A stretch of DNA of 22,673 bases from a virus, in the IMG/VR virus record IMGVR_UViG_646564555_000004; one strand, written 5' to 3'. The position numbers were made by a program, and so were the translations under genes. Shown here in pieces: positions 900 to 16,323 of this stretch (position 1 is its first letter; the number at the start of each line of letters is the position of its first letter). The notes beneath the pieces were generated by a model. That model saw nothing but the letters and a program-made list of their open reading frames with translations. It did not search any database and was not told where the DNA came from.

Positions 900-2048
900 T
901 TACTTTCTCACCTGTGATCGACTGATCAGCCCCTTGGCCGCCTGCGGATCGACGAGCGCCTCCGCCGCGATCGCCCCGAGCATCTCCTCCACGTCCTCCG
1001 GGATCGGCCCCGTCTCGCCACTCGGGATATCGAACAACACACCGTCTGCTCCACGCGAGAGGATCGCGTCCAGTGCGAACAGATCACCGTCGACATCGAA
1101 CGTCAGCTGCGCTTTGTCGCGGATCATCGCCACCTCCTGGAGGTCGACATCCCAGAGCTCGACATCGGCGGGCTGGTCGAGGCCGACGTCGCTCCAGGAC
1201 TCGTCACTCGAGTCCCACTCCTCGGCTTCAATTGTTCCCTCGGTCTCGTCGAGGCGCAGCCGGACAAGGCCGTTGTCCATCACAATCTCGTCGTCGAAGT
1301 CGTGCTGCGTCGAGAAGAGTGACTGCCAGAGTCGAACCCGTCCGTCGTCGTTCTTGAGGTACTTCTCTGACTCACCGCGAGTGTCGTACGCAGCGCAGTC
1401 GACCGGTGCCTCGTCGGCGTAGTCGATTTCGTAGACGAGCGTCGGATCCTCCACGCCGACCGCGTCTTTACCGTCGGCGAGATCGTAGGTGTCGACGTCG
1501 CCGAACTCCGACTCGCGCGTCTCGATCGGTTCTGCAGGTGCTCGGTGCTGTGTCTCGCCGTCGAACCACTGGACTTTGCGCGCCGCTGCGGGGACGCCGA
1601 CCAGCGCGTCCGTCTCGTTGCCGAACTCGTGGTCGGCCTGACGTGTGTTCGGCTCGACGGCACGGTAGCTGTTCTGCTGTGTTCCCTTGCGCGTGAGTTC
1701 GAGATCCCAGACGTAGATGTCGTGGGCGTTTGCGTGGGCGGGCGGCACCGACGCTGACTCGATCTCGTAGTACCCCGCGTCGGGGTAGCGTCCATCCTCT
1801 TGGAACAGTGGCAGGGCCTCGATCGAAGAGTTCGTGAGTTCGCGCAGTTCCTCGGCGTGGAGTTGGGAATGCCAACTACCAGCGCGGAACTGGCCGTCGA
1901 GCGAGAGGTCTGGCGCAGCACTCGAGAGCTGATCGACGACGGCTTCGTCGCCTTCGAGGACGCCGGCCTGGGCGAGTTGTGATTCGAGGCTGCCCGATTC
2001 ACCAGTCTGACTGGCTTCTTCGATGGGGATTTTGTACAAGTACTTCAT
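900..2048 (-). CDS. Putative tail-tip/baseplate protein (382 aa)
   Basis: Long acidic ORF with haloarchaeal codon usage, coupled to its neighbours. Function inferred from position only. Confidence 0.6.
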   Translation of the reverse strand: MKYLYKIPIEEASQTGESGSLESQLAQAGVLEGDEAVVDQLSSAAPDLSLDGQFRAGSWHSQLHAEELRELTNSSIEALPLFQEDGRYPDAGYYEIESASVPPAHANAHDIYVWDLELTRKGTQQNSYRAVEPNTRQADHEFGNETDALVGVPAAARKVQWFDGETQHRAPAEPIETRESEFGDVDTYDLADGKDAVGVEDPTLVYEIDYADEAPVDCAAYDTRGESEKYLKNDDGRVRLWQSLFSTQHDFDDEIVMDNGLVRLRLDETEGTIEAEEWDSSDESWSDVGLDQPADVELWDVDLQEVAMIRDKAQLTFDVDGDLFALDAILSRGADGVLFDIPSGETGPIPEDVEEMLGAIAAEALVDPQAAKGLISRSQVRK

Positions 2049-2057
2049 AACAAAAGC

Positions 2058-2720
2058 TCACCAGTCGGGGGTGTACTCGCCGAGTTCGGCGACCACTTCG
2101 TCGACGGCGTCCTGGACGTCGTCGAGTGCGTCGTCGACGTTCGGGACCGTCGCCGTTCGGACTAGCGTCAGCGTGATGCTGATCTCCGCGTGATCCTCTT
2201 TCGAAATTACGTGACTCTGGACCGCGACCGTGATCGGCTCACTGAACGGGCCTGCGGAGTCCGAGTACGTGCCGTCAGTGTGGCCGCGGATGTGGAGTTG
2301 GGTCTGGCCACCACTGTCGCTGCGTGTCTCGTTGAGCCAGTGGCGGAGGACATCGACCTGTGCGTCGAGGTCGCCGGGCACAGCGTCGTACTGCGTTGAC
2401 TCGTCACTCTCCGCGGAGCCGTCGCCCCATTGCGTCGACTCCTCGGCACCACGGGTCGCGCTGATTGTAATCTGGTCAGTACCTGCCCCACCATCGATGT
2501 GGTACCCTTCGCGTCGGCCGAAATCACCACTCGAGATGGGATCGGTCAGGGCGTCTGGTGCGATGTCGAACGCCTCGGTGACGTACTGACCACGCTCGGA
2601 GAGCACGTACGAGCGGTCGAGTTCGTCGGTCGTCTCAAGATCGGTCTGCAGAACGAACACACCCATCTCGTCGGTGCCGCTAATTGGATCGATTTCGAGG
2701 ACAATTCGGTCAGAAAGCAT
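2058..2720 (-). CDS. Putative distal tail protein (220 aa)
   Basis: Acidic ORF preceded by SD GAGGTGA (2727-2733, minus strand). First tail gene after the tape-measure candidate and the rhomboid insertion. Function inferred from position only. Confidence 0.55.
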   Translation of the reverse strand: MLSDRIVLEIDPISGTDEMGVFVLQTDLETTDELDRSYVLSERGQYVTEAFDIAPDALTDPISSGDFGRREGYHIDGGAGTDQITISATRGAEESTQWGDGSAESDESTQYDAVPGDLDAQVDVLRHWLNETRSDSGGQTQLHIRGHTDGTYSDSAGPFSEPITVAVQSHVISKEDHAEISITLTLVRTATVPNVDDALDDVQDAVDEVVAELGEYTPDW

Positions 2721-2726
2721 GAACAG

Positions 2727-2733
2727 TCACCTC
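2727..2733 (-). promoter_or_regulatory. Shine-Dalgarno site GAGGTGA for the 2058..2720 gene
   Basis: Reverse complement of tcacctc, 6 nt upstream of the ATG at 2720. Confidence 0.7.
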
Positions 2734-2752
2734 GGGCTGATTGTCAGACTTG

Positions 2753-2766
2753 CCAAACGATTTAGG
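2753..2766 (+). promoter_or_regulatory. Possible BRE/TATA-like promoter for a leaderless rhomboid transcript
   Basis: CCAAACGA followed by TTTAGG, with the TTTA element 30-25 nt upstream of the ATG at 2791, the spacing expected for leaderless haloarchaeal mRNAs. The match to the TATA consensus is imperfect. Confidence 0.35.
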
Positions 2767-2790
2767 CGTTCGTGGACCGATAGAACGAGT

Positions 2791-3441
2791 ATGGGCCACC
2801 AGACGACGCCAGAGCCGGCACCCCTTGCTGAGACCGAGACTGGCGGCGAGAAGTCGGAGGAGACGTGGGGCGAGGCGCTTGGCCGCAACCCGGTCGTGCA
2901 AACGCTTGCGATTATGATGGCAGTCTCTATCCTGGGGTGGAGTGCGACCGGTGGTCAGGGCATCCCCGACGACTTCGCGGTCGCGATGCCTGTCTTCGAT
3001 CCCTGGTGGTCGCTCATCACCGCGACGTACGGGCACCTGGACACCGCACACCTCATTTCCAACGCGACGATGGTCGCCGTTGCCGGCGGCCTGATCTCGC
3101 TGTACTCGTCCGCGATCCGCTTCCACTTGTTCTTTCTCACGACCGGCGTTCTCTCGTCGATCAGTCAGGTCTACATCGCCGACGCCTTCGGGACATCGCT
3201 CGCCGTGATCGGTGCGAGCGGGAGTGCGTTCGCCCTGGGTGGCTACATCATCGGGTCGGTCTCCACCGCCGGCGACTCCGAGAAGAGCGGCTCGTTCGGC
3301 CCGGTTGCCGTCCTCGTGTTGCTCGCTGCTGGCGGTGTAACGATCTGGATGTCGCCGCCCGGAACGGCGTTCGGATCCCACTTCGTCGGCGTGTTGCTCG
3401 GCCTGATTGCCGGCCGACTCCATCTCCTGCGGACTCGCTGA
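2791..3441 (+). CDS. Rhomboid family intramembrane serine protease (216 aa, start at MGHQ)
   Basis: Six hydrophobic segments. Loop-1/TM2 motif PWWSLITATYGHLDTAHLISN (HxxxxHxxxN), catalytic GASG serine motif and catalytic His in SHFVGVLLG. The ORF-track start at 2674 overlaps the opposite gene, so the ATG at 2791 is preferred. Confidence 0.92.
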   Translation: MGHQTTPEPAPLAETETGGEKSEETWGEALGRNPVVQTLAIMMAVSILGWSATGGQGIPDDFAVAMPVFDPWWSLITATYGHLDTAHLISNATMVAVAGGLISLYSSAIRFHLFFLTTGVLSSISQVYIADAFGTSLAVIGASGSAFALGGYIIGSVSTAGDSEKSGSFGPVAVLVLLAAGGVTIWMSPPGTAFGSHFVGVLLGLIAGRLHLLRTR

Positions 3442-3446
3442 CTCAG

Positions 3447-4664
3447 TCATCGGAACGCCCTCTCGAGATCGTCGACTCGCCCTTCCAAGTCACTCAGTTC
3501 GTCCTCGAGTTCGTCGTACGCACCGTCCAGTTCACGTTCGAGGTCGCTGACGGCGTCGGCAACGTCTCGGATGTCGTCGACGATGATCTCGGTGTCGAAC
3601 GTCTGCGTGACGCTGATCTGCTCGATTGCAACGCCACTACCGGCCGATCCTGACGCGGGTGCCCCTGCCGCGTCAGTGCTTGCCTCTCCCGCAGCTGTTC
3701 GGCTGCCCGAGCCCGATGATCGGAATGGTGATACTCTCTCAGCAACGGAGTCGGAGAACTCCTCTGCCTTCCTGGCCTGTTCTGCAGACCACTCATCAAT
3801 TTCGGGTGCGCCAATGTGCTCAAAAACCGGCAGCGGATCTAAGTCGTCGTCGCCCCCGTCCAAGTCGACGGCGTCCGGATCCGACATTGTGTCCGGAACG
3901 CGTGTCTCTGGACCAGGTTCTCGTTGCCTCGTCTCGGTCGTGATTGAGATTGTCGGCGGATCCTCGATCTCGAGTGGAGGGACGTCTTCGACGGGTAACG
4001 GCTCGACCTCCTCGAGTGGGTACGGTTCCTCGGGGTGGTCGACATCGAACACGAGGTCCTCGACGTGTTCGGTTTGGACGCCGAGTTCGAAGTCGTCGAT
4101 CCGCTCTGTGTCGACGGCGATCTCGAACTGCTCGAGTTCCTCCGTGTCCACGTCGACGCCGATGTCGTCGATCTCCTCACCCGAGACTGCGACCTCGACC
4201 GCGCCGATCTCGTCTGCAGCGACGTCAACGGCGAGATCGTCCGCGTCGACCGTGATGTCGTCGCCGGCGATCGCGTTCCCAACTGCAGAGCCGACCGCCG
4301 AGCCGATCCCGGCACCGATGCCACTCGCAGCGCCGCCAGCGAGGCCACCAGCACCACCGAGGAGGTCGCCGAAGAGACCACCGCCGCCAGAGTCGCCGTC
4401 GATGTCACCGTCCCACCCTTCGAGAATCTCGAGGATGTCTTCCAGGTTGGCGTGGTTATCGCGACTCCATCGGTGCTCACGTCGGGCACGCCGCTGTGCG
4501 CGACCGCCACCCCCGGTTTGGGCAGACATCGTCCCGCCGTCAGTCATGCCGATCTCAGTCGATCCGATCTCGGACTCGATTTGCTGACGAGCATTTCGGA
4601 GTTCGCTGTCCGGGATGTCTATATCGACACGAGCAGTTGTGCCGAACTCGTTCCCGTCAGTCAT
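3447..4664 (-). CDS. Tape measure protein candidate, unusually short (405 aa)
   Basis: Directly follows the frameshifting tail chaperone, with an ATGA overlap at 4661-4664. Contains a Gly/Ala-rich hydrophobic stretch, internal repeats and a C-terminal coiled coil. Confidence 0.65.
   Translation of the reverse strand: MTDGNEFGTTARVDIDIPDSELRNARQQIESEIGSTEIGMTDGGTMSAQTGGGGRAQRRARREHRWSRDNHANLEDILEILEGWDGDIDGDSGGGGLFGDLLGGAGGLAGGAASGIGAGIGSAVGSAVGNAIAGDDITVDADDLAVDVAADEIGAVEVAVSGEEIDDIGVDVDTEELEQFEIAVDTERIDDFELGVQTEHVEDLVFDVDHPEEPYPLEEVEPLPVEDVPPLEIEDPPTISITTETRQREPGPETRVPDTMSDPDAVDLDGGDDDLDPLPVFEHIGAPEIDEWSAEQARKAEEFSDSVAERVSPFRSSGSGSRTAAGEASTDAAGAPASGSAGSGVAIEQISVTQTFDTEIIVDDIRDVADAVSDLERELDGAYDELEDELSDLEGRVDDLERAFR
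4050..4229 (-). repeat. Five tandem 12-aa repeats in the tape measure candidate
   Basis: VDVAADEIGAVE / VAVSGEEIDDIG / VDVDTEELEQFE / IAVDTERIDDFE / LGVQTEHVEDLV (aa 146-205). Confidence 0.7.
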
Positions 4665-5241
4665 GGATAGCCTCGGTCTTCGGCGCGGTTAGCAAGTAAC
4701 ACGAGGTAGTCGACCGGCGTCTGCAGAATATCCGGGTAGCTCATTCCATGGGCGAGGGCGACGACGATGAGTTCGTCGAACCGCTCTCGCCCTCGCTCCT
4801 GTTTCCCGAGACGCCAGGCACGCCGAGCGCGTTGGCCTTCGCCTCAGCCCAGTCAACAAACGCAGGGTGACACTGTCCGACGTCGGTGAACGTCTCCGAA
4901 AGGCCACCGCTGTGGTACGGTGCCGCCGCCGTGCTCGCTGCGACGAACCAGTTGCGCCGTTCCTTCTTCTCGACGTTTGACGGCATCTCGCGGTGCATGA
5001 GCGCTTCCTCGGCGGCAGTCATCGCACCGAGTTCGATCTCGGCGTCGGGTGACCAGCCTTCTTCATCGCGCTGCCACTCGAGTCCATCCTTGTAGTAACG
5101 CAACCGATTGCGTCGGCCCTGCGTGTATGTGTACTCGTCCGTACCGCTGTCGAGTTCAGTGAGAGCGGCTTCGAGGGCGTCGATCTGATCGGTCAGTTCG
5201 TCGATTGCCTCATCGAGCGTGTACGCCTCGGTCGTGAGCAT
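4661..5241 (-). CDS. Tail assembly chaperone -1 frameshift product (GT-like, about 193 aa)
   Basis: After G GGA AAC the -1 frame is open for 46 codons (QERGRERFDELIVVALAHGMSYPDILQTPVDYLVLLANRAEDRGYP). It stops at TGA 4661-4663, overlapping the tape-measure ATG. Confidence 0.8.
4741..5241 (-). CDS. Tail assembly chaperone (G-like, 166 aa)
   Basis: Lies between tail tube and tape measure, has a TGATG overlap with the tube gene, and carries a slippery heptamer near its 3' end. Confidence 0.8.
   Translation of the reverse strand: MLTTEAYTLDEAIDELTDQIDALEAALTELDSGTDEYTYTQGRRNRLRYYKDGLEWQRDEEGWSPDAEIELGAMTAAEEALMHREMPSNVEKKERRNWFVAASTAAAPYHSGGLSETFTDVGQCHPAFVDWAEAKANALGVPGVSGNRSEGESGSTNSSSSPSPME
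4801..4807 (-). promoter_or_regulatory. -1 programmed ribosomal frameshift slippery site G GGA AAC
   Basis: An X XXY YYZ heptamer in the correct codon register (TCG GGA AAC = Ser-Gly-Asn), followed by a 10-bp inverted repeat. Confidence 0.85.
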
Positions 5242-6134
5242 CAGGCGACCACCTCAACGTCTGCGACGTGGTAGTCGATCGGTTCGCTCAGGTCCTCGTC
5301 GGGGTTGACAAGGTTGCTCCAGTCGTAGCTGGTCGGTTGCATCCCTACGAGTTCGTAGCCGATCGTCTCACCCTGCCCGTTCTCGAACGTGAGTGTCCCG
5401 TCGACCTTGTCGACCGACTCCAGGTCGACACCGTCGCCGACGGCCATCTCGAGTTGGTCGGTCTCGGTCACGGTTGCGTCGCTCGCGAACGCCGGCTCGA
5501 TTGCCGAGGCGACCGCGTCGAAGGGGTGCCGGGACTGACCGCGACGGAACCGTGCGAGGTTCGACAGCGATAGCGTCGCCGTCTGCATGAGTGTCTGCGC
5601 GGCGCCGTCGACATCGAGTTCAGTGCCGTGCCACGTGTACTCGTCGTCGCAACTCGGCTTCTCGATCGACTCTGGCGTCGAGACATCGTCCGGCTCGAAG
5701 CCATACGCCAACGTCAGATCGACCGTGATGTCCTCGGCGCGCTGGTAGCTGACCGATGCGTCCAGAACGATCGTCCCGGTCGGAGTTCGAGATGCATCCT
5801 CGTCGAGCAGGTCGGCACCGAAGTGCCACGCGCTCGACGGCGCTCGCATCGGTTCGTTCGGGAGCGCGGTGCCATCGTCGGCGAAGATTAGGTCGTGGAA
5901 GTTGTCGTCGGTCATCGTGAACGAGACGCTCGCTGCGCCCTCGAAGTCACCCGCGCGTGATCCGCATGGCGTGGGGTCGTCGGGGTGGCGCGATCGCTGG
6001 AGCGCCTGCTCGACCGTCAGGTTGCCGACTGTGATGTTCGTCCCTGGCTGGATCCACGTTGGGTCGGCCGCCGGACCGTCGCCATACTCCGACTCGACCG
6101 TGTAGGCCACGGTTGCCGCGCCGGCGCCGGTCAT
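5241..6134 (-). CDS. Major tail tube protein (297 aa)
   Basis: Size, beta-rich composition, N-terminal VAYTVESEYG pattern, SD GGAGGT, and position between terminator and chaperone. Confidence 0.8.
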   Translation of the reverse strand: MTGAGAATVAYTVESEYGDGPAADPTWIQPGTNITVGNLTVEQALQRSRHPDDPTPCGSRAGDFEGAASVSFTMTDDNFHDLIFADDGTALPNEPMRAPSSAWHFGADLLDEDASRTPTGTIVLDASVSYQRAEDITVDLTLAYGFEPDDVSTPESIEKPSCDDEYTWHGTELDVDGAAQTLMQTATLSLSNLARFRRGQSRHPFDAVASAIEPAFASDATVTETDQLEMAVGDGVDLESVDKVDGTLTFENGQGETIGYELVGMQPTSYDWSNLVNPDEDLSEPIDYHVADVEVVA

Positions 6135-16047: not shown

Positions 16048-16323
16048 TCAGATCAGGAAGTGGAGGAACGCGGCGACCAGGAACAGGTCGATCGCGATGA
16101 TCCCCGGAATAGCGACCAACCGAAGCATGAATCCAAACGGTGGATACAGTGGTGCGTTCTTAACCCAGGTCTCTTCTTGGACCGCCTTGGTTATCTCGAG
16201 AGCATTGCGGATCAGTGCCCACCACGTCAGCAGTAGGACGACCGCAAACAGGAGGAGATAGGCCGCCAACGTGAGTGACTCGACCGGTGCCTCATAGAGC
16301 CGAATAAATGGATTCGATGTCAT
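16048..16323 (-). CDS. Small membrane protein with two TM segments (91 aa)
   Basis: Two long hydrophobic stretches. ATGA overlap with the upstream gene. Confidence 0.7.
   Translation of the reverse strand: MTSNPFIRLYEAPVESLTLAAYLLLFAVVLLLTWWALIRNALEITKAVQEETWVKNAPLYPPFGFMLRLVAIPGIIAIDLFLVAAFLHFLI

Follow-up and report, generated by a model that had tools for sequence, protein, structure and literature searches.

In the tail modules of haloarchaeal siphoviruses, the junction between the putative tape-measure gene and the next tail gene forms a conserved slot in which several viral lineages carry a gene for a predicted rhomboid intramembrane serine protease. We describe this gene from a stretch of 22,673 nucleotides, hereafter the window (IMG/VR virus record IMGVR_UViG_646564555_000004), which is chromosomal (G000:C1:1657857-1680529) and carries a head-tail virus module on its minus strand. 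The rhomboid gene lies on the plus strand at 2791-3441, antisense to the tail operon, and encodes P0001, a protein of 216 amino acids with six transmembrane (TM) helices. Its sequence and its structural model make P0001, almost certainly, a catalytically competent rhomboid intramembrane serine protease. Along with the conserved slot, a promoter signature of the leaderless type, an accessory distribution among related viruses and a repeated exchange with the plain rhomboid of the hosts are new. As to function, we tentatively favour a remodelling of the host envelope or entry pathway.

The open reading frame of P0001 extends from an ATG at 2791 to a TGA at 3439-3441, and its GC content at third codon positions (GC3) is 0.825. 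Two overlapping frames were rejected as real genes: the minus-strand frame at 2710-3450, with a GC3 of 0.58 and 15% Arg, is a high-GC shadow frame, and the plus-strand frame at 2865-3653 is likewise Arg-rich, with a GC3 of 0.57-0.58. A GTG at 2674 was also discarded as start codon, since it would overlap the start of the neighbouring tail gene P0004 and since both the homologues and the promoter box described below match the ATG at 2791. No other among the larger plus-strand frames tested in the window has a coding-like GC3 or support from PHROGs, small frames not being excluded, and the original prediction of a sole credible plus-strand gene therefore stands for the larger frames only. P0001 matches the Pfam Rhomboid family (PF01694) with 52.3 bits, the cut-off being 22.6 (E 9.4e-14; positions 4-139 of a profile of 143), and, over its full length, the viral family phrog_16931 (E 2.8e-40), which is labelled 'unknown function'.

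Hydropathy delimits six hydrophobic membrane segments in P0001, and the residues expected of an active rhomboid are distributed over them. The motif H82-x4-H87-x3-N91 of the oxyanion-hole region (3034-3063) is located on TM2, where it aligns with the HxxxN of GlpG; the GASG motif (G141-A-S143-G144, 3211-3222) with the catalytic Ser143 is found on TM4, and the catalytic His197 (3379-3381) on TM6. The TM2 motif, G141, S143, G144 and H197 are invariant in 14 homologues, and S143 and H197 align, respectively, with the serine of GLSG and the histidine of AHISG in Haemophilus influenzae GlpG. The L1 loop, which is modelled with low confidence, contains the invariant residues P67 and W73 (PWW) with no conserved Arg after the Trp. 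An AlphaFold2 (AF2) model of P0001 (predicted local distance difference test, pLDDT, 76.8; predicted template modelling score, pTM, 0.73) retrieves GlpG structures with Foldseek at a probability of 1.0 and a template modelling score of up to 0.72. The bit scores stay below the NCBIfam equivalog cut-offs both for rhombosortase (TIGR03902, 29.4 against 84) and for GlpG (TIGR04239, 17.6 against 250), and a Pfam scan finds no zf-AN1 match. P0001 thus shares with GlpG of Escherichia coli and H. influenzae (MEROPS S54) the six-helix core, the HxxxN on TM2, the GxSG serine on TM4 and the histidine on TM6; it differs by an identity of only about 18-21%, a short acidic N-terminal tail, the absence of a GlpG-type cytoplasmic domain and its being encoded by a virus. 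The Pfam score, the H82/H87/N91, GASG and H197 residues, the six segments and the GlpG fold uphold the original prediction of an intact rhomboid with all its catalytic residues.

The rhomboid gene is convergent with the putative tape-measure gene P0003 (3447-4664, minus strand, 405 amino acids), and the two stop codons are 5 nucleotides apart (gap 3442-3446), exactly the antisense placement in the tail module that had been described from the sequence. On its other side, it diverges from P0004 (2058-2720, minus strand, 220 amino acids; phrog_20675, 8e-42), the first distal tail gene, and the two starts are separated by an intergenic region of 70 nucleotides (2721-2790) whose equivalent measures 52-118 nucleotides in homologous loci. 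Homologues of P0004 follow the slot in the viruses CGphi46 and BJ1 and in proviruses. A rhomboid gene is present at this position in about ten viral lineages, whose proteins are 35-99% identical; the start codons of genes in several of these loci were set by alignment. The antisense arrangement stressed in the original prediction recurs in eight of these lineages and is not obligatory, the other two having the gene in the orientation of the tail operon. One of the antisense copies belongs to an isolated virus, Halorubrum virus CGphi46 (Graaviviridae, genome of 39.8 kb), in which HALG_00049 is placed between HALG_00050, a homologue of P0003, and HALG_00048, a homologue of P0004. HALG_00049 belongs to the same family (PHROG 16931) as P0001 and has the same slot and orientation; it differs in sharing only 35-36% identity with P0001, in its long branch in the phylogeny and in its annotation as 'hypothetical protein', without a rhomboid label. 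Antisense proviral rhomboids are 98.6% (G318), 66% (G378), 43% (G148) and 36% (G258, a Haloferax elongans record) identical to P0001, and the same layout is encountered in the viral contigs L082, L083 and L114. The co-oriented copies, in L007/L008 (IMG/VR) and in L128, start about 2-70 nucleotides after the tape-measure stop.

Both CGphi46 and BJ1 encode a tyrosine integrase, which, together with the chromosomal location of the window, fits a temperate lifestyle. The carrier is, with near certainty, a temperate haloarchaeal siphovirus of the BJ1/CGphi46 type (Graaviviridae-like) integrated into the host chromosome.

The distribution of the rhomboid among related tail modules was assessed with a profile of P0004 homologues, which recovered such modules from 32 of the 401 Halobacteria genomes sampled; 30 loci were inspected. 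These genome samples are subsamples and related genomes in them are not independent. The slot contains a rhomboid in five of the 30 modules. Elsewhere, in many loci, the putative tape-measure gene directly abuts the next tail gene, or the slot is occupied by other small genes. BJ1 gp63 (L040:5668-5955) and its homologue in L092 (1134-1457, plus strand) are small two-helix membrane proteins encoded on the sense strand, as is the two-helix protein of 66 amino acids in the slot of L094 (1243-1443, plus strand); L089 carries an antisense gene for a two-helix protein of 72 amino acids (1187-1405, minus strand), and L090 a frame for a soluble protein of 110 amino acids (1089-1421, plus strand). Altogether, the two-helix proteins of rhomboid-free slots span 66-107 amino acids. 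This junction is a hot-spot for cargo, for the most part membrane proteins, and since the rhomboid is found in five of 30 modules, the others having small membrane proteins or nothing, it is accessory cargo rather than a part of the tail. The Haloferax proviruses L089 and L090 have no rhomboid, yet their next tail gene shares 60-62% identity with its counterpart in L009, which does carry one, a proximity from which it follows that the gain or loss of the rhomboid was recent on that branch. Genome G271 displayed two P0004-like genes with identical scores 60 kb apart (G271:C1:543333-543932 and 604075-604674) plus a weaker third, which could correspond to a duplicated provirus or to tandem proviruses.

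Upstream of the rhomboid gene, a TATA-like hexamer TTTAGG occupies positions 2761-2766, that is -30 to -25 from the ATG. In seven antisense loci whose upstream regions cannot be aligned with one another, a T-rich hexamer is found at this same distance in every case (-31 to -26 in one of them): TTTAGG, TTTTGT, GTTTAG, TTTACG, TTATTT, TCTTTA and TTTTAC. Equally T-rich hexamers have a background frequency of 2.1% in these loci. The spacing is that expected of a haloarchaeal TATA box serving a leaderless mRNA. The possible leaderless promoter of the original prediction has thus gained support from comparison, and the signature fits a promoter of its own that would give the rhomboid gene a leaderless transcript. 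No conserved promoter box occurs at a fixed distance upstream of the divergent tail gene P0004. Late transcription would probably read antisense through the rhomboid gene, in which case the two transcription units would oppose each other. At its other end, the gene shows no terminator of its own: the stop is 5 nucleotides from the convergent gene and no T-run is present in the bases that follow. In the relatives, the rhomboid stop is 0-2 nucleotides from the convergent gene or overlaps it by 4 nucleotides.

The relationship between viral and host rhomboids was examined through a family profile search over the 401 sampled genomes at a threshold of E <= 1e-10 and a maximum-likelihood (ML) tree. 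The profile matches 400 of the 401 genomes, mostly over the full length and with values near 1e-50 to 1e-60. In the hosts, the relative is a rhomboid of the plain six-helix kind, about 200 amino acids long; the copy of the present genome, L003, lies at about 2.58 Mb of G000:C1. It has the same architecture as the viral copies, which nest among host ones in the tree and are in some cases 62-76% identical to them; the host gene differs by its housekeeping neighbourhood, as opposed to a tail module, and the copy of P0001's own host is only 32% identical to P0001. The same genome encodes separately L002, distinct from L003, which combines zf-AN1 and Rhomboid domains. Orthology of P0001 with such AN1-zinc-finger (RhoII-type) rhomboids was considered and rejected, as P0001 has no AN1 domain and the AN1 type is the separate gene L002.

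The bulk of the host copies track host taxonomy in the ML tree. P0001 belongs to a clade of ten (support 99/95) without any host-context member, six of its sequences being located in tail modules and the other four on short contigs, and the rhomboids of CGphi46 and L128 sit on long branches. A node with a support of 99/96 unites the copies of L060 and L083 (P0012) with copies from a host context in the same genus, to which they are 72-76% identical; TruB, Cmk and YidC-like proteins are encoded next to these host copies. Similarly, the copy of L009 falls with host-context copies of Haloferax, with which it shares 62-66% identity, and one of these, L042, is flanked by PGI, CitMHS and SecDF. Forcing all tail-module copies into a single clade costs 88.8 units of log-likelihood (delta lnL) and a single viral origin is rejected by the approximately unbiased (AU) test (p-AU 8e-6). 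The gene has therefore passed between viruses and hosts on no fewer than two or three occasions, and each time the slot was the same. The phylogeny against host rhomboids that had been proposed at the outset thus speaks for repeated exchange, and the viral genes derive from the plain six-helix host paralogue. The genomes G148 and G258 have no member of the plain subfamily at E <= 1e-10 other than the proviral copy, and sister genomes carry the gene chromosomally. Among the loci compared, no neighbour of the host paralogue is shared across genera.

The plain rhomboid is also patchy in the genus Haloferax, with a close copy in about nine of 22 sampled genomes, and the host-context copies L042, L045, L046 and L048 of this genus encode proteins 78-85% identical in non-syntenic neighbourhoods. 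These observations suggest that the plain rhomboid is mobile within host chromosomes as well. Single in-frame stops were noticed in three host-context matches, a TGA in L028 (G097:C3:202337-202930), a TGA in G081:C19 and a TAA in G119:C1, which may be pseudogenes or sequencing errors.

The viral rhomboid is under purifying selection. The genes of G000 and G318 differ by 17 synonymous and 3 non-synonymous changes, giving a ratio of non-synonymous to synonymous substitution rates (dN/dS) of 0.06, and deeper pairs yield 0.2-0.4. The original prediction had proposed a survey of viruses and proviruses and had envisaged a decaying one-off insertion; with its presence in about ten lineages and its purifying selection, the gene is neither a one-off nor in decay. 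When L011 (G318:C80) is compared with positions 2058-4664 of the window, two near-identical proviruses of one genus, the rhomboid is 98.6% identical, P0004 91% and the tape-measure candidate 70% with indels, so that the latter either evolves much faster or is recombinant.

Our favoured guess for the function of the viral rhomboid, and one that falls rather short of conviction, is a remodelling of the envelope or of the entry pathway with superinfection exclusion as its pay-off. The protease would be made while the tail operon is quiet, during lysogeny or early infection, and, once inserted into the cell membrane, would have an outward-facing active site like that of GlpG. It would then cleave at least one single-pass membrane protein of the host envelope or entry pathway, and the resulting change of surface or entry route would render the carrier cell resistant to further infection, by lysogenic conversion or superinfection exclusion. 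A host substrate seems likelier than a co-evolving viral one, because host-derived copies interchange in the slot and because the tape measure evolves faster. The wider proposal of a prophage-expressed rhomboid that acts as a protease-based exclusion or conversion system, whether it cuts a host receptor, an envelope-biogenesis protein or a segment of the incoming tape measure, is possible and rather doubtful. Were exclusion of this kind to be true, it would be the first described case, in any virus, of immunity conferred by an intramembrane protease, would provide the first natural substrate of an archaeal rhomboid and would represent an enzyme kept matched to its host through repeated gene exchange.

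The precedent invoked in the original prediction was the effect of a Haloferax rhomboid on the S-layer. Such an effect is indeed reported: deletion of RhoII in Haloferax volcanii changes the S-layer glycoprotein's N-glycosylation, motility, and PibD and pilin behaviour (PMC9263693, PMC4343526). RhoII (HVO_0727), the only haloarchaeal rhomboid studied, is like P0001 a six-helix member of the rhomboid family; it differs by an N-terminal AN1 zinc finger (architecture according to PMC4343526), the architecture found in L002 of the present genome. RhoII being a different paralogue, the precedent speaks for the plausibility of envelope remodelling only. Several points weigh against exclusion through envelope or entry remodelling. 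This rhomboid subfamily has no known substrate, and the lysogen already possesses a plain paralogue of its own, L003, 32% identical, which makes the added value of the viral copy unclear. In L007/L008 and L128, the co-oriented gene is packed right after the tape-measure stop, an arrangement that fits a late or lytic role as well or better. Moreover, there is no space for a terminator, with stops 0-5 nucleotides apart or overlapping the convergent gene, and the GC content of the rhomboid gene (0.61-0.63) is that of its neighbours, without any deviation in base composition.

The co-oriented loci lead to the main competitor of envelope remodelling, a helper acting late in the lytic cycle, which might serve egress or the maturation of the tail or of the tape measure by processing a membrane protein of virus or host, or might destroy receptors against the re-adsorption of progeny. 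With a start about 2-70 nucleotides past the tape-measure stop, the rhomboid of L007/L008 and L128 is probably a late gene there, and its place beside the tape-measure gene is fixed across 35-99% identity. We know of no lysis or egress genes of archaeal tailed viruses, a gap which also counts toward such a helper. The absence of the rhomboid from 25 of the 30 related tail modules and from BJ1 shows however that it is dispensable for tail assembly; in eight of ten lineages, it runs antisense to the late operon with its own conserved promoter box, and a polytopic membrane enzyme is unlikely to work on tail assembly in the cytoplasm. We regard this late role as unlikely, if worth keeping in mind. 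A more specific version of exclusion, in which the lysogen's rhomboid stops DNA entry by cutting the Gly-rich membrane-inserting segment of an infecting virus's tape measure, appears less plausible still. Rhomboids favour helix-unstable segments rich in Gly, Ala and Ser, and P0003 contains a hydrophobic segment of 42 amino acids of this composition that is conserved in homologues from rhomboid-bearing viruses; the two genes adjoin, and HK97 gp15, a tail-region moron, reportedly causes a tape-measure-dependent block of entry and offers a precedent. The Gly-rich segment does not mark the tape measure as the substrate, since BJ1 gp62 has a similar segment in a genome without a rhomboid. On at least two occasions, moreover, host-like copies have taken the place of the rhomboid next to tape-measure genes that remained viral, which ill fits a co-adapted pair, and the tape measure changes far faster, with 70% identity against 98.6% for the rhomboid between G000 and G318.

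Alternatively, the protease might serve counter-defence or host take-over by removing a membrane-anchored defence effector, sensor or regulator, or by altering secretion through a TatA-like substrate (cf. Providencia AarA), to the benefit of viral replication. The roles known for prokaryotic rhomboids, which cleave membrane proteins for regulation or quality control (PMC4343526, PMC9263693), count in favour of this possibility, as do the promoter signature, which is independent of the late genes, and the expectation that a host-derived enzyme would retain host substrates. Nevertheless, no linked defence gene or candidate substrate is apparent, and a tail-module site that elsewhere receives small membrane-protein cargo resembles that of entry or exclusion cargo more than that of early anti-defence genes; we consider counter-defence improbable. 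There is very little to be said, finally, for a neutral passenger, a host gene caught by illegitimate recombination with no role for the virus. Close relatives in host chromosomes and a slot that takes varied cargo are what such a passenger would predict, but the dN/dS of 0.06-0.4, the invariance of every catalytic residue, the conserved promoter box and the persistence of the gene in about ten lineages, one of them an isolated free virus, at identities as low as 35% speak strongly against it.

Accessory genes for membrane proteins among the tail genes of temperate phages, HK97 gp15, T5 llp and phi80/N15 cor, are said to possess their own promoter and often to oppose the late operon. These products are small non-enzymatic membrane proteins or lipoproteins, whereas P0001 is an intramembrane protease for which exclusion is only proposed. 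Of the features by which a moron is recognized, the rhomboid gene displays accessory presence and, as a sequence signature, a promoter of its own; it displays neither its own terminator nor a deviating composition. Rhomboid folds also occur in other viruses, namely in uncultured Siphoviridae and Podoviridae, in a 'rhombosortase' of an uncultured Caudovirales phage, in Yasminevirus, in Megaviridae and in Aureococcus anophagefferens virus, all retrieved with a Foldseek probability of 1.0 and query-normalised template modelling scores of 0.54-0.67. These proteins differ from P0001 in sharing only 12-21% identity with it and in having unrelated hosts. Since annotations of rhomboid folds exist for uncultured phages and for giant viruses, the presence of the family in viruses is not new. 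The original prediction knew of no virus-encoded rhomboid exclusion system: the literature search found none either, although rhomboid folds were already annotated in viral genomes and metagenomes. A full-text search yielded no paper on the function of a virus-encoded rhomboid, the words virus, viral and phage are absent from a 2025 review of the superfamily, and HALG_00049 is not taken up in the papers citing CGphi46, of which the HRTV-DL1 paper mentions no rhomboid.

Entry, exclusion of rivals and exit are almost unknown in archaeal tailed viruses. A conserved viral rhomboid family is now defined, with a fixed slot, a cultured pair of carrier virus and host (CGphi46 and Halorubrum sp. M4 25-10-8A) and Ser143 as the residue for a catalytic-dead control. 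Two questions become testable as a consequence: which substrates haloarchaeal rhomboids cleave, and how haloarchaeal proviruses change the surface of their host. The repeated exchange at one slot is, in addition, an example of how viruses sample a membrane protease of their hosts.

The remaining genes of the window's tail module bear on the identity of the tape measure. The tail tube protein (5241-6134, minus strand) matches phrog_18409, a 'minor tail protein' (9.5e-109), and Pfam Phage_tube_2 slightly below the cut-off (8e-6). It is followed by a tail-assembly-chaperone-like gene of 166 amino acids (4741-5241, minus strand; phrog_19457), in whose zero-frame register a -1 slippery heptamer, G GGA AAC, occupies 4807-4801. 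Beyond this heptamer, the -1 frame is open for about 46 codons (4661-4807) and ends in an ATGA overlapping the start of P0003. P0003, which has the tube and chaperone genes on one side and the distal tail genes on the other, matches phrog_30850 of 'unknown function'; it has no match in Pfam or NCBIfam, tblastn against phages gave no hit, and BLASTP did not align it significantly with the HJTV-4 tape measure. The tape-measure neighbour of the original prediction is consequently supported by position and chaperone frameshift, and not by any family model or annotated tape measure. P0003 is a putative tape measure on these two grounds, because a frameshifted chaperone-like gene classically precedes tape-measure genes. 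Its Gly/Ala-rich hydrophobic segment covers amino acids 93-134 (4263-4388, minus strand). Downstream of P0004 lies a gene for a hub-like or minor tail protein of 382 amino acids (900-2048, minus strand; phrog_18406, 1e-99), whose homologue in HJTV-4 directly follows the annotated tape-measure gene. The tail module also encodes a fibre-like protein with a Laminin_G_3 domain, and the terminase of the window shares 76% nucleotide identity with ChaoS9 terL. Between the replication and packaging modules, a lower-GC stretch contains a minus-strand frame of 91 amino acids (16048-16323) with two strongly hydrophobic helices, which is the only other credible membrane protein of the window and possibly holin-like or exclusion-like.

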